A stretch of DNA of 32,536 bases. Origin: Actinomycetota bacterium. GTDB lineage: Bacteria > Actinomycetota > Acidimicrobiia > Acidimicrobiales > Ilumatobacteraceae. The translations under genes were made by a program, and so were the position numbers. This document shows, one piece after another, positions 866 through 24,937 of the stretch. The notes beneath the pieces were generated by a model. It ran no database searches and was not told where the DNA came from. It worked only from the letters and a program-made list of their open reading frames with translations. Within the stretch, counting starts at the first letter, position 1. Each line of letters starts with the position of its first letter. The stretch lies in contig JBJTGN010000056.1 in NCBI GenBank assembly GCA_046093905.1, forward strand, positions 1 through 32,536, read 5' to 3'.

Positions 866-1846
866 ATGAGCACGACCCCGCTCTTTCGTCTCGAATCGTC
901 CGATGCCGACCGGCAACGGGTCGAGAACGCGTTGCGGGATTCGGTCAAGACATCCGATGCCTACCTCACCGATCTGGCATCTCACTTGTTGCTCGCCGGG
1001 GGGAAGCGCCTCCGACCGATGTTCTCCGTCGTGGCATCTCAGATCGCAGGAGCGCCCACAACCGAAGAGGCCGTTCTCGGTGGAATCTCGTGCGAGCTCG
1101 TCCACCTCGGCTCGCTCTACCACGACGACGTGATGGACGAGTCTCCGACCCGACGTGGCGTCGAGACCGTGAACGCGAAGTGGGGGAACCTTCAGGCGAT
1201 TCTCGCTGGAGACTTCTTGTTGTCCCGGGCATCGGAAATTGCCGCATCACTCGGAACCGACGTTGCAGGACTTCTCGCTCGAACCATCGGCCGTTTGTGC
1301 GAGGGCCAGATCGAGGAACTTCGCCACACGTACAACGTCGCTCGGCCAGTCGAGAGCTATCTGTCCTCGATCAGTGGCAAGACGGCGTCCCTGTATGCAA
1401 CTTCGGCGCGAATCGGCGGCATCGTGTCGAAATTCGACCGTTCGATCGTCGATGCGTTGACCGCATACGGCGAGGCGTACGGCATGGTCTTTCAGATCGT
1501 CGACGACCTGCTCGATCTCTCGGCGACCGATGAGGAACTCGGCAAACCAGCCGGACACGACATGGTCGAAGGTGTGTACACGCTTCCGGTTCTTCACACT
1601 CTCGCAAGTGGTGGAGTGCCAGCCCGTGAACTCGCCGACGTTCTGGGCAAGCCCCTCGATTCGATCGAGCGCGACAAGGCATTGGCGATCGTGCGCTCGA
1701 ACGGCGGTCTCGAATCGACGATCAAGATCGCCCAGGCATATGTGGACGAGGCTCAGTCAGTGACGAAAGCCTTTCCGAACTCCGCGGCCACACTTGCATT
1801 GCGCGAAGCACCGGCTGCTCTTCTCGCAACTGTTGCCGACCGCTGA
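866..1846 (+). CDS. Polyprenyl diphosphate synthase (trans-isoprenyl diphosphate synthase family)
   Basis: 326-aa ORF. Both Asp-rich motifs are present: LYHDDVMDES (first DDxxD region) and FQIVDDLLD (second DDxxD). GKRLRP is also present. Confidence 0.9.
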   Translation: MSTTPLFRLESSDADRQRVENALRDSVKTSDAYLTDLASHLLLAGGKRLRPMFSVVASQIAGAPTTEEAVLGGISCELVHLGSLYHDDVMDESPTRRGVETVNAKWGNLQAILAGDFLLSRASEIAASLGTDVAGLLARTIGRLCEGQIEELRHTYNVARPVESYLSSISGKTASLYATSARIGGIVSKFDRSIVDALTAYGEAYGMVFQIVDDLLDLSATDEELGKPAGHDMVEGVYTLPVLHTLASGGVPARELADVLGKPLDSIERDKALAIVRSNGGLESTIKIAQAYVDEAQSVTKAFPNSAATLALREAPAALLATVADR

Positions 1847-1889
1847 GCGTCGATCACGTCGACAGCGTCGACTGCGAGAGTGCGAACGG

Positions 1890-2882
1890 TTACGCCAGGA
1901 TCGACAGCAGGTGATCAGCCGCTGCGAGGCCCGAGAGAGAGGCTCCTTCGACCTTGGGTCCTGCGAATGCATCACCTGCGAAAACGAGTGACCCCATGGC
2001 CAGGAATGGTTCGGCCCATGGTCGACGAGGTGTTGCGAACCGCCACTTCTTGTACTCGCTCACGATGCAGTTCGACCGGCCGAAGTACGTGCGCGCGTGC
2101 TCGATCAGCAACTTCGTTCCGTCGTCGTTCGAGTCGTCCCAGTGCTTCGCACTCCACTGCGGATTCGCGTGGCATGTGAGAGCAGGGACATCGGAGATTC
2201 CCTTCAGGGCATTGTCACCGACCCACGAGAACACCTCATCGGGATCTTGTAGTCCTCCTGGCAGTTCGAGTCCCGACGGTCCGTCGAGAACTGCGAGCAG
2301 CCCGATCGTCCGGTCGTAGTCGGCCATGAGCAGATCACGCGGCAATTCGATTCCGGCTTCCACGGTCAATGAGTACGACTGCGCAATGGGACATGTGACG
2401 ATGACAGCATCGGCTGTGAGCCGGGTTCCGTCGTCGATCGTGATCGTGAAGGGACCAGAGCCCGTCGACTCGGATCTTGAGACTTCTTCGATCGAGAATA
2501 CGAGTGTCGACGTGTGCACATTGAGGTTCTTGGCAATGTGTTTGGCGAGAGACGTCATTCCGCCGGGTACGACATAGCGCGGATGACCGTCGTCTCGGTC
2601 GAAACCTCGACACCATTCACGAACGACTCCGTCTTGTGTCCAGCCTTCGACCAGGGAAGAGAACTGATCCGAGCGCACCGTGAAGAACTGTGCACCGTGA
2701 TCCAAAGTGGCTTGGCGTCCATCGGGTGTTGCAATTCGACGCGTGGCGAGTCGTCCGCCGACCCCGCGACCCTTGTCGAGTACGACGACTTGATGGCCGG
2801 TCTTGGTCAGGCGATCGGCTGCGAGAAGGCCGCTGATTCCGGCGCCGACGACGACGACATTCGACCCGGTCGCAGTGGCCAT
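1890..2882 (-). CDS. NAD(P)/FAD-dependent oxidoreductase, renalase-like (COG3380-type)
   Basis: Start trimmed to ATG 2882 (MATATGSNVVVVGAGISGLLAADRL), 5 nt after the upstream stop. Dinucleotide-binding GxGxxG is followed by VLDKGRGVGGRLATRR and DHGAQFFT, which are typical of renalase-like amine-oxidase-fold proteins. Confidence 0.75.
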   Translation of the reverse strand: MATATGSNVVVVGAGISGLLAADRLTKTGHQVVVLDKGRGVGGRLATRRIATPDGRQATLDHGAQFFTVRSDQFSSLVEGWTQDGVVREWCRGFDRDDGHPRYVVPGGMTSLAKHIAKNLNVHTSTLVFSIEEVSRSESTGSGPFTITIDDGTRLTADAVIVTCPIAQSYSLTVEAGIELPRDLLMADYDRTIGLLAVLDGPSGLELPGGLQDPDEVFSWVGDNALKGISDVPALTCHANPQWSAKHWDDSNDDGTKLLIEHARTYFGRSNCIVSEYKKWRFATPRRPWAEPFLAMGSLVFAGDAFAGPKVEGASLSGLAAADHLLSILA

Positions 2883-2887
2883 GGAAC

Positions 2888-3763
2888 TCAGGAGGCGGTG
2901 GGCACGGAATGCAGGTGCCGCTCGACCTGCGATGGTGCAGATGGTCGCGCAACCCATGCCTTCTCGGCGCGACCGAGAAAATCGCCGAGAACGCGATTGA
3001 ACGTCGTGGCGTGTTCGATCATCAGCCCGTGAGCAGCCCCCGACAGGACGGAGAGCTCTGCAGTCGGAATGAGATCAGCGAGCTCTTCACTGTCGCCACG
3101 AGGCGTCAGAACGTCCTGATTGCCGACGATGACAGCCGTCGGAACATCGATCGCGCCGAGTTGGTCGCGCAACGTGTCGTCGGCAGCGAGAATCGCCTGC
3201 ACCTGAGCTGTGAATCCATGAGAAGGACGCGACGTTGCAATCGGCCCGAGCCAGCCGAATGCCGGCCACATACGTCGCAGCGAACGCGGTCCGATCACCC
3301 AACGGGCGGCTTGAGCTGTCATCGCCCCCATACCTTGATCGCGCGCGACGTCGGCCCATGACGAGAGAAGATCGCGTCTCCACTGGTGATTGCTGCACGA
3401 CGTGCACACGAGCGAGAGCGAGCGAATGCGGTGTGGATGCATGATCGCCAGCACCTGCGAAATGGCGCCGCCCATCGACGCGCCGATCACGTGAGCGGTT
3501 TCGACTCCGGCGTGATCGAGAACAGCAATCGCATCATCGGCCATTTGCTCGAGAGAGTAGGAACCGAATGGCTTGTCGCTTCGCCCCGCACCGCGATTGT
3601 CGTGAGCGATCACTCGATAGCGAGTTGCGAACACGTACCGCTGGAGATCCCAGAGGTGCTTGTCAGCGCCCAGTCCCTGGATCATGAGAATGGGGGTTGC
3701 AGATCGACGCCCGATCGCTTCGTAGTGAAGACGAACTCCGTCGTTTGCAATCGCGTAGGTCAT
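2888..3763 (-). CDS. Alpha/beta hydrolase
   Basis: Start trimmed to ATG 3763 (MTYAIANDGVRLHYEAIG), which forms an ATGA overlap with the upstream stop at 3760-3762. HDNRGAGRS and the nucleophile elbow VIGASMGG (GxSxG) are present, and a C-terminal GAAHGLMIEH supplies the His. Confidence 0.85.
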   Translation of the reverse strand: MTYAIANDGVRLHYEAIGRRSATPILMIQGLGADKHLWDLQRYVFATRYRVIAHDNRGAGRSDKPFGSYSLEQMADDAIAVLDHAGVETAHVIGASMGGAISQVLAIMHPHRIRSLSLVCTSCSNHQWRRDLLSSWADVARDQGMGAMTAQAARWVIGPRSLRRMWPAFGWLGPIATSRPSHGFTAQVQAILAADDTLRDQLGAIDVPTAVIVGNQDVLTPRGDSEELADLIPTAELSVLSGAAHGLMIEHATTFNRVLGDFLGRAEKAWVARPSAPSQVERHLHSVPTAS

Positions 3764-8875: not shown

Positions 8876-8951
8876 TGGAGCCCGAGAGGAGAATCGAACT
8901 CCTGACCTACGCATTACGAGTGCGTTGCTCTACCGACTGAGCTACCCGGGC
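8876..8951 (-). tRNA. tRNA-Thr (anticodon CGT), 76 nt, CCA encoded
   Basis: The reverse complement is GCCCGGGTAGCTCAGTCGGTAGAGCAACGCACTCGTAATGCGTAGGTCAGGAGTTCGATTCTCCTCTCGGGCTCCA. It gives a clean cloverleaf: 7-bp acceptor (one G:U), D arm GCTC/GAGC, anticodon stem ACGCA/TGCGT with loop CT-CGT-AA, and T arm AGGAG-TTCGATT-CTCCT. Confidence 0.95.
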
Positions 8952-9027: not shown

Positions 9028-10536
9028 TCAACGTCCGAGCCGAGAATGAACGGGGTGTCGGGGTTCGGGAACGTCGATACCTGCGCTGCGGAGCAGAATG
9101 TCGATCTCTTCGATGTGGTAGTCCGCGAGAGTCCACAGATCCGGGACGAGGTCACGTGCAGCCACGAGGCCGAAATCGAGGCGGTCGAGACAACTGTGAA
9201 CAGTGATGTTCAAACCCATTCCATCGGTCACGATCGAGATCGGAATGTACTGATCGAGTCGAGCCCCCGCGAAGTAGCGCGGCTGTCGAGGACCGGGAAC
9301 ATTCGAGACGACGACATTTGTTGGGAGATTGATTCGGTCTGCGAGACGAAGTCGAGATGCAAGACGAAGTGCCGCAGTCGAAATGACCGGAGAGGTGGCC
9401 TGAGTTCCCTCGGAGATCGTGTCTGCCGGTATCAACTCGAATTGCCTCTTTGCGTCTTCCATTGCAACTTGGCACAGACGAACGCGCTCGAGAGGATCGT
9501 CGGCGAGAGTCGGCAGTTCAGCCACGATCGCCGAAACTCGGGTACTCCATGGATCGTCTTCGTCCCCCGTTCGAATCGAGACGGGCACCATGGCGCGCAG
9601 TTCGCGATTGGGCAGAGCGTTCTTGTCGATCAAGTATCGACGCAGTGCACCCGAGCACACGGCCATGACGACATCGTTGACTGTTCCGCCGGTTGCGTCC
9701 TTGAGAAGTTTGATGTTGCTGATCCATGTCGAGCGCATGGCGAAGCGTCGATGTGCGGTGATCGTGCGATTCCACGGTGTGGGCGGCGCTGGACTGAGAG
9801 GAAGGCGAACACGTCTTTCGTTCTCGGGTCTCGCCGATTCGGAACGACCGACACGCCGAACGCTGCGTCGAAGTTGCGCAGCTGCCTGTCCGACACCGGA
9901 GGCGCCGACCATGTCCGCGAGAGCCTGCCCGAGTCGCAGTTGCAGTCGCATTGCCTTCACTGGATTGGCGGCGAGCGACGTGAACGTGCGTTGCAGCAGT
10001 TCGATCGGGCTCGGAATCGGCTCGGGTTCCCACGGGACGGGATCCGGATACTCGGGCGAATCGGGTTCGGACTCGGTGAGCATGTTCAACAGAAGCATTC
10101 CCGCTGCACCATCGATCGTTGCATGGTGGAGTTTGGTGAGCATCGCCCATCGACCGTCAGCGAGTCCTTCGATGACATAGACCTCCCACAGCGGACGAGT
10201 TCGATCCATCGGTCGTCCGATGATGCGCGCCACTTGTTCAGCGAGTTGATCATCGGCTCCTGGCGGCGCGAGACCGAGATGGCGAATGTGGTAGTCCAGA
10301 TCGAAATCTGGATCGTCGACCCAATAAGGATGATCGAGGCCGAAAGGAACTTCCACGAGGCGCCGGCGCAACGGCTCGGCGCGTCCGATCATCGAGCCGA
10401 ACTTTCGACGGACTGCCTCGAAGGGATCGAAGTCGTGGGACGGACGCGTGTAGATCGCGAGACCGTTCACATGACCGAAGGTCGTGGGAGTTTCCAGGTA
10501 CAGAAAACTTGCGTCGAGACCGGCCAACTGACGCAT
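9028..10536 (-). CDS. Wax ester synthase/diacylglycerol acyltransferase (WS/DGAT)
   Basis: Active-site HHATIDGAAG (HHxxxDG) and the C-terminal NVPGP motif are present. Start set to ATG 10536 (MRQLAGLDASFLYLE), with GAAGG upstream. GTG 10548 is the alternative. Confidence 0.9.
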   Translation of the reverse strand: MRQLAGLDASFLYLETPTTFGHVNGLAIYTRPSHDFDPFEAVRRKFGSMIGRAEPLRRRLVEVPFGLDHPYWVDDPDFDLDYHIRHLGLAPPGADDQLAEQVARIIGRPMDRTRPLWEVYVIEGLADGRWAMLTKLHHATIDGAAGMLLLNMLTESEPDSPEYPDPVPWEPEPIPSPIELLQRTFTSLAANPVKAMRLQLRLGQALADMVGASGVGQAAAQLRRSVRRVGRSESARPENERRVRLPLSPAPPTPWNRTITAHRRFAMRSTWISNIKLLKDATGGTVNDVVMAVCSGALRRYLIDKNALPNRELRAMVPVSIRTGDEDDPWSTRVSAIVAELPTLADDPLERVRLCQVAMEDAKRQFELIPADTISEGTQATSPVISTAALRLASRLRLADRINLPTNVVVSNVPGPRQPRYFAGARLDQYIPISIVTDGMGLNITVHSCLDRLDFGLVAARDLVPDLWTLADYHIEEIDILLRSAGIDVPEPRHPVHSRLGR

Positions 10537-10550
10537 GGCGAAACCCACCT

Positions 10551-10577
10551 TCGGAGCCGACCCCCCGCCGGCTCTGG
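10551..10577 (-). terminator. Hairpin between the holB stop and the WS/DGAT start
   Basis: 9-bp stem with two G:U pairs (core GAGCCG/CGGCTC) and a C-rich 9-nt loop. On the minus strand its 3' arm runs into the GAAGG SD of the WS/DGAT gene. No U-tract. The role (terminator or SD occlusion) is inferred. Confidence 0.25.
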
Positions 10578-10584
10578 GCTGACG

Positions 10585-11688
10585 TTACACCGTGATGTTG
10601 GGCAGGGACAGAAGAAGATTTTCGAGAAGTAGCCGCTCGTTGACATTTCGCCCGAGAGCGACACTGGCATCTCGAATGCGCTTGACCGCTCGGACGTAGG
10701 CGTCTGTTTGGTGATGGGCTGTCTCCTCGGTGGCCTTTTGCAAGGCGGTCCCGTATGCAATGGTCAGCAGACGAAGGCCGGAGCGAAATTCATCCGTTCG
10801 ATGTCGACGCACCTCGCGTTTGTGACGCTCCTCGAGTTTCCGCCTTCCACTGCCCCGTTCGCCGAACTCACGCTCGCGTTCGACGAGAACCTTCATCTCG
10901 AGGTCGTGTTTGGCTGCGAGAGGCGACATCGCTTCTTCGACGGCATCGATGATTTCGCTGACGATGTCGAGAACCCGTGACGCAGTGCCGTCGAGACGTT
11001 GCGGAATGCGCGTGAACAGATCCATTCGTTCCTGAAGGGCGGGGTCGGTGGCGAGAATGCGAGCTCGGTCGAGGTCGCCGGCAGCAACGACAGCCAGGCG
11101 ATCCGCTGTCGTGCGATCGACGCCTTCGGCGGTGAGCGTCTCCACGACGACGGAGTCAGACAGTTCGCGAAAGTCGATGCGAACGCACCGAGAGACGATT
11201 GTTGCCAGATGTTCGGGAACATCGTCGAGGAGAAGATCGATCATGGTCGTTTCTGCCGGCTCTTCGATCGTCTTGAGAACAGTCGAGCGGGCGTCGTCCT
11301 GAAGCAGATGGAAGTCATTGACGATGATCACGCGCAAAGGCGCCTCGACCGGAGATTGCACAGCAGCTGGAATGAACTCCTCGCGAATCTGATCGATGAG
11401 GATTCCAGCTCCCTCGCGTTCCATCTCGTGGACATCTGGATGAATTCCGCGCAGCACGAGATCTGCAGTGCGTCCAGTTGCACTCTCGTTGCCCTGGAGT
11501 TTCGCTGCGACGAAGGCGCGCGCAGCTGTGCGCTTTCCACATCCGGGTGGTCCGACGAACATGAAGGCATGAGCCGGGGAGCTCACGAGCGCACGCAGCT
11601 TTCGAATTGCGGCGTCCTGGCCGACGACGACGTCGTAGACCGAACCCGAATTCATGGCGGAACCTGCCGTAGCGTTCGACGCGTTCAT
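10585..11688 (-). CDS. holB: DNA polymerase III subunit delta-prime
   Basis: Start trimmed to ATG 11688, a TGATG overlap with the tmk stop. FMFVGPPGCGKRTAARAF is the AAA+ P-loop. The order topA-tmk-holB-tRNA-Thr is typical of Actinobacteria. Confidence 0.85.
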   Translation of the reverse strand: MNASNATAGSAMNSGSVYDVVVGQDAAIRKLRALVSSPAHAFMFVGPPGCGKRTAARAFVAAKLQGNESATGRTADLVLRGIHPDVHEMEREGAGILIDQIREEFIPAAVQSPVEAPLRVIIVNDFHLLQDDARSTVLKTIEEPAETTMIDLLLDDVPEHLATIVSRCVRIDFRELSDSVVVETLTAEGVDRTTADRLAVVAAGDLDRARILATDPALQERMDLFTRIPQRLDGTASRVLDIVSEIIDAVEEAMSPLAAKHDLEMKVLVEREREFGERGSGRRKLEERHKREVRRHRTDEFRSGLRLLTIAYGTALQKATEETAHHQTDAYVRAVKRIRDASVALGRNVNERLLLENLLLSLPNITV

Positions 11689-20210: not shown

Positions 20211-20615
20211 TCAGGGGCTTGTGGGCTCGCGAGTCATGACCAGTCGAGATCGCACCTGGATGGTCGGAATGAATCGTCCGATGATCGGAACATTGGTGTC
20301 CACTCGGCGAGAGACGGTGACAGTCACCGATGTCTCGTCGTAGATGACGTCGACCAATGATGTCGATCCAACCGGCAGAGAGGACGAAGCGGCTGCACGT
20401 GGATCTTCGGCAAGCGATGCAATCCTCGCCACGTGGCGAGTCTCGTCGACCACCTCGAGACGACTCATGGAGATGATCGTGATCTGGACGATGAGAGCAA
20501 TCACCCCGACGATCAGGGGAATGGTCAGGGCGAATTCGACCGTCGCTTGTCCGTCGCTCACCAGTGTGTGATCGGAGGGTCGATTGGTTTGGTCAGGGAA
20601 CGCGACGCGTGACAT
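20211..20615 (-). CDS. tadE: TadE-like pseudopilin/pilus assembly protein
   Basis: DGQATVEFALTIPLIVGVIALIV is the TadE N-terminal motif (G/xxxxEF plus a hydrophobic helix). Start is uncertain: ATG 20615 overlaps the flp end by 23 nt, and GTG 20561 is the alternative. Confidence 0.75.
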   Translation of the reverse strand: MSRVAFPDQTNRPSDHTLVSDGQATVEFALTIPLIVGVIALIVQITIISMSRLEVVDETRHVARIASLAEDPRAAASSSLPVGSTSLVDVIYDETSVTVTVSRRVDTNVPIIGRFIPTIQVRSRLVMTREPTSP

Positions 20616-20787
20616 CTTCGATGACTCGGTCGAACATCTGGCCGATCTTGCCAGCACCATCTCCGCTCGACGCCCATCCGACGGCAAGAAGTGCGATGAG
20701 GGCGGCAGCCAACATGACGAGCGCATATTCCGATGTGGCTTGGCCGCGGTCGCGTGCGGAAGAGGTTGTGTGGCTTTCGGTATTCAT
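20593..20787 (-). CDS. flp: Flp-family type IVb pilin
   Basis: 64 aa from ATG 20787, an ATGA overlap with the tadC stop. MNTESHTTSSARDRG/QATSEYALVMLAAALIALLAV matches the Flp G/xxxxEY processing motif plus a hydrophobic helix. Confidence 0.85.
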   Translation of the reverse strand: MNTESHTTSSARDRGQATSEYALVMLAAALIALLAVGWASSGDGAGKIGQMFDRVIEDVTRRVP

Positions 20788-21323
20788 GGTGTCGTTCCAT
20801 TCAGTCGGAGTTGCGCGATCGTTCCCATCACGATGGGGACGATGATCAGGAACACGAAGGAGGGAAGGGTGCACAGCACCAAGGGCAACGTCAGCCTCAC
20901 CGAGAGTTGGCGAGCAAGAATCTCACCCTGTCGACGTCGCGCAAATCGAGCTTCGTGATGGATGTGCACGACGAGCGATTCGGTAGGAATACCGAGTCTG
21001 ACGGCGGAGGCCAAGAGATCGATCAGGGACGAGAATTCCGGACCGAGTCGAGTGCGAACATCGGTGAGAGCTTCGTGCAGCGACCGTCCTGCAGCAATCG
21101 CATCTCGAAGGTGGACGAAATCCGCCCTCACGATCCTGGACGTGACGTCGCCGAGCTTCATCAGAGATTGTGGAAGCGAATAGCCGGCGCGCAGCATCGC
21201 CAGTAGGAAGTCCACCGTCTCGATTGCGGCATCGAGGCGGAGATGTGCGGCGCGGATCGATCTTCGGCGGCGCGAAGAACGAATGAGAAATGCTGTTGCG
21301 ATCACGATGAAGCCGATCAACAT
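20784..21323 (-). CDS. tadC: Type II secretion system F-family protein, TadC-like
   Basis: T2SSF-like LAMLRAGYSLPQSLMKLG, an N-terminal TM helix and two C-terminal TM helices. ATG 21323 was chosen (GAGG upstream, 7-nt overlap with the tadB stop). ATG 21350 is the alternative. Confidence 0.75.
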   Translation of the reverse strand: MLIGFIVIATAFLIRSSRRRRSIRAAHLRLDAAIETVDFLLAMLRAGYSLPQSLMKLGDVTSRIVRADFVHLRDAIAAGRSLHEALTDVRTRLGPEFSSLIDLLASAVRLGIPTESLVVHIHHEARFARRRQGEILARQLSVRLTLPLVLCTLPSFVFLIIVPIVMGTIAQLRLNGTTP

Positions 21324-21973
21324 GCGGAGACCTCGCGCTGCATCCACCATCGTCCGCACAGATTCAGTCCGACTCCGAGGGTCAGGCACGTCCAGCCGAG
21401 GAGCGATCCGAACAGGAACGATCGAATCGTTGCGCTGTCGGCGGACATCCATGCACCGCAGGCGAACGGAAGCCACGTCAGCAGATTCATCGACATTGCT
21501 GCCTGTGCGGCCTGAGCAGACCGCTCTTCGCGCAGGTGAACACGATCGTTCAAGGTGACGAGGAGTGCTTCCAGATGTTCAGCCACTCGTCCGCCCTCTG
21601 ACCCTGAGAAGGAAAGTACGTGAAGTGCGATCAGTGCATCCTGCTCTCGATGAGAAAGTCGACTGCGACTGTTCAATTCCTCGATCCTCGATTGGCACGC
21701 GGCTTCGAGCGATTTCCGGTCTGCCATGTGTGCATATACGGATCGGATCTCGTGAGAGCGATGAGCGAACGCAGCACTCGTGATCGCAGAATCGAGAGAT
21801 GCTCCCGACAGCACGAGTCGGTGACAATGGCTGAGAGCGCTCGTGAGTTCGTCGTCACGGCTTGCCTGGCGAGTACCTCGCCGACGTGAGCTCGATCCCC
21901 ATCGATTCGAACCGTGCCGTCCACGATGTCTGTGGAGTCTCCGGCGAACGAGTTGACGCGTGGGCAATCTCAT
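21317..21973 (-). CDS. tadB: Type II secretion system F-family protein, TadB-like
   Basis: LVLSGASLDSAITSAA is T2SSF-like, and the C-terminal TM helices are LLTWLPFACGAW and LLGWTCLTLGVGLNL. ATG 21973 forms an ATGA overlap with the tadA stop. The Arg/His-rich first ~40 aa are unusual, so the start is not certain. Confidence 0.65.
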   Translation of the reverse strand: MRLPTRQLVRRRLHRHRGRHGSNRWGSSSRRRGTRQASRDDELTSALSHCHRLVLSGASLDSAITSAAFAHRSHEIRSVYAHMADRKSLEAACQSRIEELNSRSRLSHREQDALIALHVLSFSGSEGGRVAEHLEALLVTLNDRVHLREERSAQAAQAAMSMNLLTWLPFACGAWMSADSATIRSFLFGSLLGWTCLTLGVGLNLCGRWWMQREVSAC

Positions 21974-22899
21974 GGACGCAAACCCGTCACTCCGTATCGT
22001 TCGTGGGTCACAGGGTCGACTGCGGCTACATGGTCGACGACCCGCCGGCCGTCTGCCGACCTTTCCATGTGCACGGCGAGGCCGATCGCGGAATCGACGA
22101 GAGAACGAGCGTCTTCGATCGTCCAGCCGACTGCTGCTGAGAGGATCAGGACATCGAGGCGATGCAGCCCGTCGAGTGCGGAATTGGCATGAAGTGTGGC
22201 CAAGCAGCGACGGTGCCCCGTGCTCATTGCTTGAACCAGTGTCAACGCTTCTCGACCTCGTACTTCGCCGACGATGAGGCGATCCGGGCGCAAGCGAAGC
22301 GCTGTTCGGAGCAGATCATCGATGCCGATCGCCCCTCGTCCTTCGTGTGTTGGATTCCGCGATTCCAGTCGAACGACATTCGGGTGTTCGATGACGAGTT
22401 CATACGTGTCCTCGATGACGATGAGTCGTTCACTCGGCGACGACATCGAGGCGAGAGATCCGAGAAGGGCACTCTTGCCCGAACCGGTTGCGCCGGTGAT
22501 CAAGATGTTGGCGGTCGAAGTTCGAATCAACTCCTCGAGACACACCCAACTTCGTTCGGAGTCGCTCGGGGCGAAATCTTCGAGGCTGAACGGGGTCTGT
22601 CGGAAGATCCGAAATGCTGCACACGTTCCACCGACAGCCACTGGTTCGATCACAGCGCACACCCGCGTTCCATCGGGCAGACGAGCATCGACCATGGGAG
22701 CCAACCGGTCGAGCCTTCTCCCGAGCGGAGCGAGAAGTCGTTGGAGTGTCACGTCGATCTCGCCAGGTCGAAGATCGGGAGAACGTTCGAGACGACCACG
22801 ACGTTCGACCCAGACCTCGGTTTCGTCGTTGACGAGGACGTCGGTCACTGCAGGATCTTCCCAATGACGACGGAGTTCGAATGGCAGACAGTCCAGCAT
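21970..22899 (-). CDS. tadA: Tad pilus secretion ATPase (CpaF/TadA, T2SS/T4SS ATPase family), short form
   Basis: Walker A ILITGATGSGKSALLGSL, Walker B region RLIVIEDTYEL, and PDRLIVGEVRGREA. At 309 aa it lacks the long N-terminal domain. ATG 22899 forms a TGATG overlap with the tadZ stop. Confidence 0.9.
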   Translation of the reverse strand: MLDCLPFELRRHWEDPAVTDVLVNDETEVWVERRGRLERSPDLRPGEIDVTLQRLLAPLGRRLDRLAPMVDARLPDGTRVCAVIEPVAVGGTCAAFRIFRQTPFSLEDFAPSDSERSWVCLEELIRTSTANILITGATGSGKSALLGSLASMSSPSERLIVIEDTYELVIEHPNVVRLESRNPTHEGRGAIGIDDLLRTALRLRPDRLIVGEVRGREALTLVQAMSTGHRRCLATLHANSALDGLHRLDVLILSAAVGWTIEDARSLVDSAIGLAVHMERSADGRRVVDHVAAVDPVTHERYGVTGLRP

Positions 22900-23591
22900 C
22901 AGCCATCACGCCATCGACTGACGACCGGTGTGAGAGCCCGAATCAGCTCTGTCGAGGGACGCGAAGTGATGATTCCTGCATCGACACGGCGGGCGATGTC
23001 TGCAGAGATGTCGAGCGTCGCTGCGATCGGCAATCCGAGGACTCGTGCAACGTCGGCTTGTCTGAGTGCGCGATCGGGTTCGGTCACGATGATGACGGCA
23101 TCCGATGAGTGATCGATGAGTCGCGCACGCCGCAATGCGAGGTAGCAAGGGCGGACGACGATGTAGCGATGGTCAGCGACGGATTCCAGTTCGCGTGGAA
23201 CAGGTCCTCGCCCAGCATCGACGATGATCGTGCAGCAGCTGGTCGACAAGTTGGTGAGTTCGGCCGCAAGACGCGACCATGCTCCAGAACGCGACTCGGG
23301 AAGGGTTGCTCTACCTCGGGGGAGAACTCCGAGTTCGGTCTCGCGGTCGACGATCAGTGTTCGGATGTCGAACGATGTCGGGTCGGAAATCCATTCGGCT
23401 ATTCCGACGAGAGGGTCTTCGATGCCGAGAATTGCCGGGACGTCGCCGGCGAGGTCGACGATGACAGTTCGTGCATCGTTGTTGCGATCGGTCGCCGAAC
23501 GTGACTCGACGATGGCAAGGCCTGTTGCGACGACAGACGTTCCCGAACCGCCCTTGGGAGACCAGCACAGCACCAACACGACACCCTCCAC
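22899..23591 (-). CDS. tadZ: TadZ/CpaE-like ParA/MinD-family ATPase (pilus assembly localisation protein)
   Basis: Deviant Walker A in LCWSPKGGSGTSVVATGLA. At 230 aa it is the ATPase domain only. GTG start at 23591. Confidence 0.75.
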   Translation of the reverse strand: MEGVVLVLCWSPKGGSGTSVVATGLAIVESRSATDRNNDARTVIVDLAGDVPAILGIEDPLVGIAEWISDPTSFDIRTLIVDRETELGVLPRGRATLPESRSGAWSRLAAELTNLSTSCCTIIVDAGRGPVPRELESVADHRYIVVRPCYLALRRARLIDHSSDAVIIVTEPDRALRQADVARVLGLPIAATLDISADIARRVDAGIITSRPSTELIRALTPVVSRWRDG

Positions 23592-23645
23592 ATCGAAACC
23601 CGATGGACTTCATGTGGGGAAGGAGACCGCAATTGCGGTGAGAGT

Positions 23646-23720
23646 CAGTCGGAGAGGATCTTGTTGATGGCGACAGCAATGAGTCCGATCAGCACGATCG
23701 CCATGAGAAGTCGACGCATG
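23646..23720 (-). CDS. Candidate 24-aa hydrophobic mini-protein (MRRLLMAIVLIGLIAVAINKILSD)
   Basis: Too short for the ORF track. It runs from ATG 23720 to TGA 23646, 54 nt upstream of the tadZ start. The peptide is one TM-length helix with basic N-terminal and acidic C-terminal ends. Third-codon positions are mostly G/C, as in neighbouring genes. Only a weak GGTGA lies upstream. Confidence 0.25.
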
Positions 23721-23784
23721 GGTTCACCATAGTGCTCATTGGTGACTCGCCGACGTGTATCGAATCGTCGCTACTGTGGTCGCC

Positions 23785-23877
23785 GGAGGTGTCCGAGTAC
23801 CTGGTGGACTCCGCCGCCTTCAAAGCGGTTGGGACGAGCGATCCTCGTCCGGCGGGTTCGATTCCCGTCCACCTCCG
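23785..23877 (+). tRNA. selC: tRNA-Sec (selenocysteine tRNA, anticodon TCA), 93 nt, CCA not encoded
   Basis: Folded by eye. The acceptor GGAGGTG(T)/(C)CACCTCC has 7 bp plus a U:C eighth position. The D stem GAGT(A)CC/GGACTC has 6 bp with one bulge and a 4-nt loop TGGT. The anticodon stem is GCCGC/GCGGT with loop CT-TCA-AA (anticodon 23820-23822). The variable arm has a 7-bp stem GGACGAG/CTCGTCC with a 5-nt loop. The T arm is GCGGG-TTCGATT-CCCGT and the discriminator is G. The arrangement parallels E. coli selC (8/5 stack, long extra arm). Confidence 0.8.
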
Positions 23878-23894
23878 CGAAGCGAGGTGACGGG
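23864..23894. terminator. Hairpin 1 (selC 3' acceptor/T-stem strand paired with downstream flank); candidate factor-independent, bidirectional terminator
   Basis: CCCGTC-C-ACCTC-C-GC GAA GC-GAGGT-GACGGG gives 13 bp with two single-C bulges and a GAA loop. No U-tract on either strand. It lies between convergent selC and the sigma gene. Confidence 0.35.
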
Positions 23895-23920
23895 CAATCG
23901 GGAGGAGTGCAACGACGGAT

Positions 23921-23951
23921 CCCGTCCACCTCCGCGAAGCGAGGTGACGGG
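23921..23951. terminator. Hairpin 2 (identical copy), 44 nt downstream of the sigma-factor stop on the minus strand
   Basis: Same 31-nt hairpin sequence as 23864-23894. It is the first structure met by transcripts leaving the sigma gene (stop at 23996-23998). Confidence 0.4.
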
Positions 23952-23995
23952 ACGCCGTCGCTCCACGACGGTCCCGATGACCATCCCCAGCGAGG

Positions 23996-24937
23996 TCAGA
24001 CGGCCAGGAGGTCGCGTGCGCCAGTGTCGCTCGACGGATGACGCAACTTGCTCATTGCACGAGCCTCGATCTGGCGGATGCGCTCACGGGTGAGGTTGAA
24101 GTGCTCTCCGACCTCTTCGAGTGTCCGCGGCTCGCCACGGTCGAGGCCGAAGCGCAACTTGAGAATCTCGCGCTCGCGTTCGTCGAGAGGTGCCAGCAGA
24201 CGCTGGATCTCCTCGGGCAGCAGAGCTGTGGCTGCCACTTCGAACGGGCTTTCGGCAGACCGGTCTTCGACGACGTCGCCGAGTTCGGCATCTCCGTCTT
24301 CGCGCAACGGCTCGCTGAGCGACAGGGGCTCGGCTGCGAAGCGCAGAGCTTCCGTCACCTTGTCCTCGGGCATCTCGACTTCTTCGGCCAGTTCGCGCAG
24401 CGTGGGCTGTCGGCCGAACTTGAGCTCGAGGCGGGTACGAGCCTTTTGCAGACGTGCCAGCGTGTCACCGGCATGGACGGGAAGGCGAATGGTTCGTCCC
24501 GTGTTGGCGATACCGCGGGTGATCGCCTGGCGAATCCACCAGGTGGCGTAGGTGGAGAACTTGAAGCCCTTGCGCCAGTCGAACTTCTCGACGGCGTGCA
24601 TCAGACCGAGGTTGCCCTCCTGAATGAGGTCGAGAAGGGGAAGTCCTGAGGCCTGATACTTCTTGGCAATCGACACCACGAGGCGCAGGTTCGATTGGAC
24701 GAATGCCCTCTCTGCGATCTCGCCCTCTTTGACGAGGTTGCGCAACTCTCGCTTGCGGGCCGGAGTCAGGCTCTTGTAGTCGGCCGCCTGGCTGGCTTCG
24801 ACAGCGGCTTTTCCGGCTTCGATCTGCTTGGCCAGACGAACTTCGTCGTCCTTGGTGAGGAGTGTGTACTGACCGATGTCGGACAGATACAGACGGACCA
24901 GGTCTTCTTCATCACGGTCGACGCGATCCTTGGCCAC
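23996..24937 (-). CDS. RNA polymerase sigma-70 family factor, RpoD-like without a long region 1.1 (group-2 / SigB-like)
   Basis: 313 aa. Region 1.2 is DLVRLYLSDIGQYTLLTKDDEVRLAKQIEAG. Region 2 is LRLVVSIAKKYQASGLPLLDLIQEGNLGLMHAVEKFDWRKGFKFSTYATWWIRQAI. Region 4.2 is LEEVGEHFNLTRERIRQIEARAMSKLRHP. GTG start at 24937 with GTGAGG 7 nt upstream. Confidence 0.9.
   Translation of the reverse strand: MAKDRVDRDEEDLVRLYLSDIGQYTLLTKDDEVRLAKQIEAGKAAVEASQAADYKSLTPARKRELRNLVKEGEIAERAFVQSNLRLVVSIAKKYQASGLPLLDLIQEGNLGLMHAVEKFDWRKGFKFSTYATWWIRQAITRGIANTGRTIRLPVHAGDTLARLQKARTRLELKFGRQPTLRELAEEVEMPEDKVTEALRFAAEPLSLSEPLREDGDAELGDVVEDRSAESPFEVAATALLPEEIQRLLAPLDEREREILKLRFGLDRGEPRTLEEVGEHFNLTRERIRQIEARAMSKLRHPSSDTGARDLLAV

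Follow-up and report, generated by a model that had tools for sequence, protein, structure and literature searches.

Two described systems stand closest to the locus analysed here, the selC gene of Escherichia coli (b3658) and the tRNA-Sec genes of mycobacteria. The E. coli tRNA carries the anticodon UCA in a CUUCAAA loop, the discriminator base G73, a long D stem with a 4-nt loop, a long extra arm and 13 stacked acceptor and T positions, and its T stem opens with G-U followed by C-G. Its acceptor/T helix consists of 8 + 5 perfect pairs, its 6-bp D stem has no bulge, its CCA end is encoded, and the gene lies apart from selAB and selD (selC at 3.836 Mb, selAB at 3.758-3.761 Mb and selD at 1.847 Mb of the E. 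coli map). In mycobacteria, which belong to the same phylum, Actinomycetota, tRNA-Sec is ~93-95 nt long, the acceptor starts with GGAGG, and a 7-bp acceptor stem and a 6-bp T stem add up to 13 pairs (PMC13449736). In these bacteria selA-selB directly follow selC and selD adjoins it, making co-transcription possible, and the presence of selC matches that of selA, selB and selD (PMC13449736). More generally, tRNA-Sec is defined by G73 and by an acceptor/T helix of 13 bp, and variants with bulges have been described (PMC5330540). Secmarker variants with a 12-bp acceptor/T helix or with single bulges, including bulges in the D stem, were described in true tRNA-Sec genes from genomes that also have selA, selB and selD, mostly within selABC clusters; their bulges, at acceptor positions 3a-5a, at anticodon-arm position 43a and, in Clostridiales, at D-stem position 13a, are placed differently from the one in the gene analysed here (PMC5330540).

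The window, i.e., the whole stretch of DNA that was analysed, is one complete MAG contig of 32.5 kb (32,536 nt) with 59.8% GC from an Ilumatobacteraceae-like bacterium. It carries a tRNA-Sec gene that shares the listed traits of E. coli selC, from the anticodon loop to the opening of the T stem, and that is likewise encoded apart from selAB and selD. An arm-for-arm likeness to E. coli selC, noted in an earlier sequence-only reading of this DNA, was borne out by alignment with the annotated MG1655 record, which needed one gap. The window gene differs from the E. coli gene in its 7 + 6 pairs (or 8 + 5 with a U:C), in the purine that bulges from its D stem and in the lack of an encoded CCA. It resembles the mycobacterial tRNA in length, in the GGAGG start and in the 7 + 6 layout, but, unlike mycobacterial selC, it is flanked by a tad operon and a sigma-factor gene, and the sel genes presumably occupy other loci. 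Very probably, it is a functional selC, encoding tRNA-Sec (UCA), from an uncultured freshwater actinobacterium of the class Acidimicrobiia that resembles the Ilumatobacteraceae and whose sel protein genes lie elsewhere in the genome.

Detection and fold of the tRNA-Sec gene

The gene occupies positions 23785 to 23877 of the forward strand (93 nt including the discriminator G73), as delimited by ARAGORN, Rfam, the minimum free energy (MFE) fold and covariation. ARAGORN, applied to the window, reported a tRNA-SeC at 23785-23878 (+) with the anticodon tca at position 36, corresponding to window positions 23820-23822. An Rfam scan at curated thresholds matched RF01852 (tRNA-Sec) to 23785-23876 with 66.7 bits and E = 1.1e-11, where the gathering score is 47 bits; the match covers model positions 1-91 of 91, and the covariance model thus accepts the gene at full length and above its curated threshold. 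Both programs found the same two tRNA genes in the window, this tRNA-SeC(UCA) and a tRNA-Thr(CGU). The latter, at 8876-8951 (-), scores 71 bits against the Rfam tRNA model, adjoins WS/DGAT, holB, tmk and topA, and is an ordinary gene.

Using ViennaRNA, the cloverleaf was obtained as both the MFE and the centroid structure of 23785-23877 at -47.3 kcal/mol, compared with -35.1 ± 3.6 kcal/mol for shuffled controls (z = -3.44), and both structures keep TCA in the anticodon loop. The 5' strand of the acceptor stem, GGAGGUG (23785-23791), pairs with 23870-23876 in the fold and by covariation, and a 3-nt linker separates it from the D stem. The D arm (23795-23811) was found by fold and covariation to have a stem of 4 + 2 bp with a bulged A15 (23799) and a UGGU loop. 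The anticodon arm (23813-23829), on which ARAGORN, Rfam and the fold agree, has a 5-bp stem and the 7-nt loop CUUCAAA with the anticodon UCA at 23820-23822, and the long variable or extra arm (23832-23850; fold and covariation) has a 7-bp stem and a 5-nt loop. The T arm (23851-23869) folds into the 6-bp stem GGCGGG/CCCGUC with the loop UUCGAUU, in which G68-U84 is followed by C69-G83. The gene, all of whose parts are on the forward strand, ends with the 3' acceptor strand CACCUCC and the discriminator G at 23877 (23870-23877; sequence, fold and covariation). CGA comes right after this G, so CCA is not encoded.

The sequence-only reading had drawn much of this by hand. It proposed a tRNA-Sec architecture with a UCA anticodon at 23785-23877, comprising a 7-bp acceptor, a 6-bp D stem with one bulged A and a 4-nt loop, the anticodon loop CT-TCA-AA, a 7-bp extra arm and a G discriminator lacking an encoded CCA, and every one of these parts was recovered by the detectors and the computed fold. 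Its 8/5 layout differs from the fold in one detail. The 13 stacked positions are the same, but G67-C85 is closed as a sixth pair of the T stem, which makes 7 + 6 standard pairs and leaves no U:C. In an 8/5 drawing the eighth position is a U:C mismatch, whereas in a 7/6 drawing every pair is standard, and on the modelled fold the helix is better read as 7 + 6 pairs than as 8 + 5 with a U:C. Covariation is unable to choose between the two drawings, since the columns that decide between them never vary. The two ORFs described as reading across the tRNA (23739..24041 and 23755..24093) are both present in the mechanical ORF list and are to be discarded. Scans for a consensus promoter and terminator around selC gave no match. 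Two detectors that work independently, the computed fold and strong covariation all support the identity of the gene as tRNA-Sec.

Conservation and genomic position among relatives

Species-representative genomes were scanned with a pattern that fixes the D loop and the anticodon arm, and at least 120 related loci were obtained, nearly all of them from Acidimicrobiia or Ilumatobacteraceae MAGs, together with the isolate Desertimonas flava. The named relatives are Ilumatobacteraceae or Actinomycetota MAGs, some of them from freshwater. For the analysis of covariation, 69 distinct 93-nt tRNA-Sec sequences were used, which align without gaps. Standard pairs occupy 99.9% of the 2,139 stem cells, and 10 pairs change on both sides: six of the seven in the extra arm, D-stem pairs 12-26 and 13-25, and acceptor pairs 5-88 and 6-87 (GC to AU, UA to CG). 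None of 500 shuffles equalled any observed measure of pairing or covariation, and in a control where the partners were slid by 1-3 columns, pairing fell to 39-53% of cells. The bulged purine of the D stem, the discriminator G73, an invariant T arm and the pairing of all 13 acceptor/T pairs (7 + 6) were each found in 69/69 sequences. The anticodon arm is invariant as well, which carries no evidential weight because the search pattern fixed that arm.

The host loci span 50 to 77% GC, yet the tRNA sequence is kept across this range and stays GC-rich in 50%-GC genomes. In the sister species, the tRNA-Sec lies in the same place and is identical at 92/93 positions, the sole substitution being in the extra-arm loop, whereas the flanking DNA is ~84-86% identical to the window. 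The sigma-factor protein of the window occurs unchanged on the sister-species contigs. The tRNA of the more distant locus L010 shows 4 differences from that of the window, which amount to 2 compensatory pairs. Together, these patterns mark the tRNA-Sec as a functional RNA under purifying selection. G73 is followed by an encoded CCA in most Acidimicrobiia relatives and is not in the window, L001-L003, L091, L013 and L026, where the end reads GCGA (window, L001-L003, L091 and L013) or GCGC (L026). In the window's clade, where CCA is not encoded, it must be added after transcription.

On its 5' side, selC is divergent from a tad-type pilus operon at 20211..23591 (-), identified by Pfam and by gene calls in relatives. 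Pfam places a T2SSE ATPase, two T2SSF genes and TadE in this operon; the 230-aa gene that heads it has no Pfam match and is tadZ-like by position only. Also at the head of the operon is a 24-codon ORF at 23645-23719 (-), encoding the hydrophobic peptide MRRLLMAIVLIGLIAVAINKILSD; its DNA is almost invariant in L001-L003, and it is too small for the ORF list. On its 3' side, selC is convergent with a gene for a sigma-70 family factor with regions 1.2, 2, 3 and 4 (23996..24937 (-); Pfam). The other genes of the contig were surveyed by a Pfam scan of 30 of the longest ORFs, covering about 1-27.8 kb, which matched polyprenyl synthase, tilS-like, ECF sigma factor, MarR, WS/DGAT, holB, tmk, topA, MMPL, RsgA, DPRP, BaxI, Rce1-like and several hydrolase genes. 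Between 27.8 and 32.5 kb, synteny with the L001 gene calls gave peptidyl-prolyl isomerase, GATase/peptidase C26, MPAB, an AI-2E transporter and asparaginase II.

The sequence-only reading regarded selC as orphaned between these neighbours and as detached from its usual partners. An unusual position is not supported by the relatives. In tblastn comparisons, the 5' divergent neighbour is the 230-aa tad-heading gene or the T2SSE ATPase at 72 of 124 related loci, the 3' neighbour is the same sigma-factor gene (66-100% identical) at 47 of the 124, and E. coli-type SelA, SelB or SelD adjoins the tRNA at 9; 28 loci have none of these neighbours, often with the tRNA at the edge of its 8-kb block. The tad-selC-sigma order is the usual and commonest arrangement among the Acidimicrobiia loci sampled, so that selC lies between the tad operon and the sigma gene as its inherited position in the class. 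Since most sampled relatives keep selC in this place, the distance from the other Sec genes is normal and is no sign of an unusual genetic code; E. coli selC is also encoded apart. In three contigs of a related lineage (L007-L009), the sigma factor is at least 90% identical in protein (gene at about 10000-10940); no tad operon and no tRNA-Sec were found within 10 kb of it, and abhydrolase, NUDIX and CoA-transferase genes come after it instead.

The short interval between selC and the sigma gene holds an exact 32-nt direct repeat on the forward strand, with its copies 57 nt apart. In the first copy (23863..23894), the final 15 nt of the tRNA are followed by a further 17 nt. The second (23920..23951) is placed between selC and the sigma gene, which converge on it, and each copy folds into a strong hairpin. 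The region 23855-23960 folds at -57.3 kcal/mol (z = -4.35). The second copy is also present in L003, and L002 and L004 repeat a different downstream module. In Enterobacteria, selC is a hot spot at which genomic islands and phages insert, and the window locus is similar in that a partial duplicate of the tRNA 3' end lies downstream and the genes 3' of selC vary by species. It differs from that hot spot in the close spacing of the two copies and in that no integrase or transposase family was matched by any of 10 ORFs from six variable intervals. The repeat may terminate transcription in both directions or may be a scar left when an element integrated at selC, and each hairpin could simply act as a terminator. 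Across the class, the selC-sigma interval ranges from about 150 nt to 5.7 kb and holds unrelated cargo, such as an RHS-repeat protein, a P450, an RCK channel, an acyltransferase and an acyl-CoA dehydrogenase. A 380-aa gene of the PF00144 beta-lactamase family lies there in L001-L005, L049, L072, L091 and L107 (e.g., L001:10943-12189) and is absent from the window interval, 23878-23995. A PF00144 gene adjacent to selC in L134 was considered as an orthologue of the sister-species gene and rejected at 25% identity.

Selenocysteine machinery in the class Acidimicrobiia

As the sequence-only reading had stated, there is no selA, selB or selD in these 32 kb, according to the Pfam scan of the 30 ORFs, tblastn searches with Sel proteins of E. 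coli and of Acidimicrobiia, and, for the right-hand end, the L001 gene calls. Nor was a recognisable selenoprotein gene seen in the window by Pfam, tblastn, L001 synteny or a scan for in-frame TGA. This mechanical read-through scan gave 57 candidates, and those examined were rejected, being either the normal TGA stop of a gene with the following ORF in the same frame (e.g., 12310 in topA/tmk and 21972 in T2SSE/T2SSF) or reading frames with no Pfam support. Being a single MAG contig, the window says nothing on the rest of the genome.

The Sec machinery is present in the class Acidimicrobiia. Genes for selA, selB or selD adjoin the same type of tRNA in L021, L028, L030, L035, L065, L082, L083, L095, L097, L112 and L134, which represent ten species representatives and one further MAG contig, and every such locus has a GC content of 67-74%, compared with 59.8% for the window. 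In L028, a formate-dehydrogenase-H-like (fdhF-like) gene at 1113-3029 (-) adjoins selD and contains an in-frame TGA at 2606. This TGA aligns to Sec140 of E. coli FdhF, in the context ...IENQARV*HSS..., and a hairpin, GUCCCCA/UGGGGAC, begins 14 nt past it, suggesting from the sequence that the gene is a likely selenoprotein target in the class.

A protein search with E. coli SelA gave matches in Enterobacteria only, whereas searches started from the SelA of L083 and continued with P0172 yielded hundreds of SelA proteins from Acidimicrobiia, two of which sit in a selA-selB pair with Pfam SelB domains. One SelA match, P0249, was considered as a product of the window's own genome and rejected, since it and MBA2607528.1, on a contig of 2,741 nt, are one gene called with different starts. 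The amino-acid composition of the SelA matches, tried as a proxy for GC, gave no discrimination. This pair lies in a conserved block of PBP, ClpP, ABC, selA, selB, abhydrolase, whiB, nfeD, arsA and arsA, and no tRNA-Sec was found within 10 kb of selA-selB in L132, L133 and L136. A metagenome scan with a SelA alignment, from which 80 loci were kept with flanks of at most 10 kb a side, gave a similar result: a tRNA-Sec was present in only 3 of the 80, and the order selA-selB-whiB-nfeD(-arsA-arsA) was observed in about 30, at 40-74% GC. Most of the metagenomic selA-selB loci of this group adjoin whiB-nfeD, without a tRNA-Sec in flanks of at most 10 kb a side. The block selA-selB-(abhydrolase)-whiB-nfeD-arsA-arsA of L132, L133, L136 and L137-L186 (e.g., L132:10001-18146) has no tRNA-Sec or selD in its flanks (at most 10 kb a side), indicating that the Sec genes of those genomes are spread over at least three loci.

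Among the loci compared, no genome or contig was found to hold both a tad-selC-sigma locus and sel genes. The conserved arrangements of selC and of selAB are both widespread and their GC ranges overlap, which is most simply explained if the two occur together in the same genomes. By tetranucleotide correlation, no SelA locus from the window's genus was found among the 80 metagenomic loci; the best value with the window is 0.916, compared with 0.98-0.99 for loci of the same genus. No collinear block linking the selAB loci to the window was found, and only single genes are shared, namely MPAB (45-53% identity), PPIase (55%) and NUDIX (65-67%), a hint, from sequence similarity, that the selAB region and the window region can be close. 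A NUDIX gene with 65-67% identity is the immediate upstream neighbour of selA in L166, L169 and L172. From the constraint on the tRNA, the patterns across the class and the correspondence of selC with selA/B/D in mycobacteria (PMC13449736), we infer that the window's own genome carries selA, selB, selD and selenoprotein genes.

Alternative readings and meaning for the lineage

Several other readings of the gene were weighed. A planktonic lineage may have lost selA, selB and selD and kept selC as a relic, as a UGA reader that inserts serine or in some other role. Consistent with such a history are the 32.5-kb contig without sel genes, the high GC of all genomes in which sel clusters adjoin selC, and the failure to recover a SelA locus of the window's genus (best tetranucleotide correlation 0.916). 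Absence cannot, however, be shown by one MAG contig, and a relic would decay, yet this tRNA is 99% identical across species whose flanks are ~15% different and changes only by compensatory pairs, including in the 50%-GC genomes where it is still GC-rich. Moreover, SelA-SelB loci of the Acidimicrobiia type with no tRNA-Sec in their flanks exist at 40-65% GC, which implies that selC is kept elsewhere in those genomes. Ser-tRNA-Sec is also a poor substrate of EF-Tu, and the G-U/C-G pairs that open the T stem, known from E. coli as the EF-Tu antideterminant, are invariant in 69/69 sequences. Overall, a lineage that lost its sel genes is an unlikely explanation, and there is no positive evidence for the fallback raised by the sequence-only reading, a tRNA of Ser type that reads UGA where the genome lacks Sec machinery. 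A more specific version, in which a streamlined freshwater lineage of Acidimicrobiia lost selA, selB and selD while the tRNA-Sec at the tad-sigma locus was conserved for another selected role, such as low-level insertion of serine at UGA or regulation, is very unlikely.

It is hardly to be expected that the gene is a tRNA of tRNA-Sec shape that serves another amino acid and reads UGA without selenium, such as the selC*-type tRNA-Cys and allo-tRNAs reportedly described by the Soll laboratory. Such tRNAs can score as tRNA-Sec, and the acceptor/T helix departs here from the textbook 8/5 partition. For a tRNA-Cys of the selC* type, U73 is the identity element expected by CysRS. The window and all 69 sequences instead have G73, the Ser/Sec identity base (PMC5330540), and the 7 + 6 pairs are the layout of mycobacterial tRNA-Sec (PMC13449736). 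In relatives, the same type of tRNA lies beside selD-selA-selB and a TGA-containing fdhA. An equally far-fetched reading makes the gene a damaged copy left behind by an integration event, either a pseudogene or the tRNA-like terminus of a mobile element. It could draw on the repetition of the last 15 nt of the tRNA 57 nt downstream within the exact 32-nt repeat and on the different genes that different species hold 3' of selC, but the duplication concerns the downstream partial copy and not the gene itself. The copy at 23785-23877, the one full tRNA-Sec in the window, is of full length with every stem intact and matches its functional relatives, and the 0/10 count of ORFs matching integrase or transposase families speaks against a mobile element.

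A functional tRNA-Sec thus remains the preferred reading. Against it stand the window's lack of sel and recognisable selenoprotein genes, the failure to find a genome or contig with both the tad-selC-sigma locus and sel genes, the high GC of every locus where sel genes adjoin selC, the U:C at the eighth acceptor position when the helix is drawn in the E. coli 8/5 register, and the loss in the window's clade of an encoded CCA that most relatives keep. If the gene works as in the established bacterial pathway, its transcript would be trimmed at both ends and CCA would be added enzymatically. SerRS would then charge the tRNA with serine, relying on G73 and the long extra arm, and SelA, recognising the long D stem with its 4-nt loop, would turn Ser into Sec with selenophosphate made by SelD. 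SelB, not EF-Tu, would recognise the 13-position acceptor/T helix and bring the tRNA to UGA codons with a SECIS hairpin on their 3' side. The sel protein genes would be expected off this 32.5-kb contig, elsewhere in the genome.

The selC gene described here is a routine gene, correctly annotated by standard tools, and it leaves the known picture of Sec decoding unchanged. For the biology of the class, many Acidimicrobiia scatter their Sec genes, with selC by the tad operon and the sigma factor and selA-selB by whiB-nfeD, in contrast to the compact selD-selC-selA-selB cluster of mycobacteria. For the organism, the gene marks an uncultured lineage as a probable user of selenocysteine, and gene callers should allow for TGA codons in its genome that are not stops, formate dehydrogenase genes being one example.
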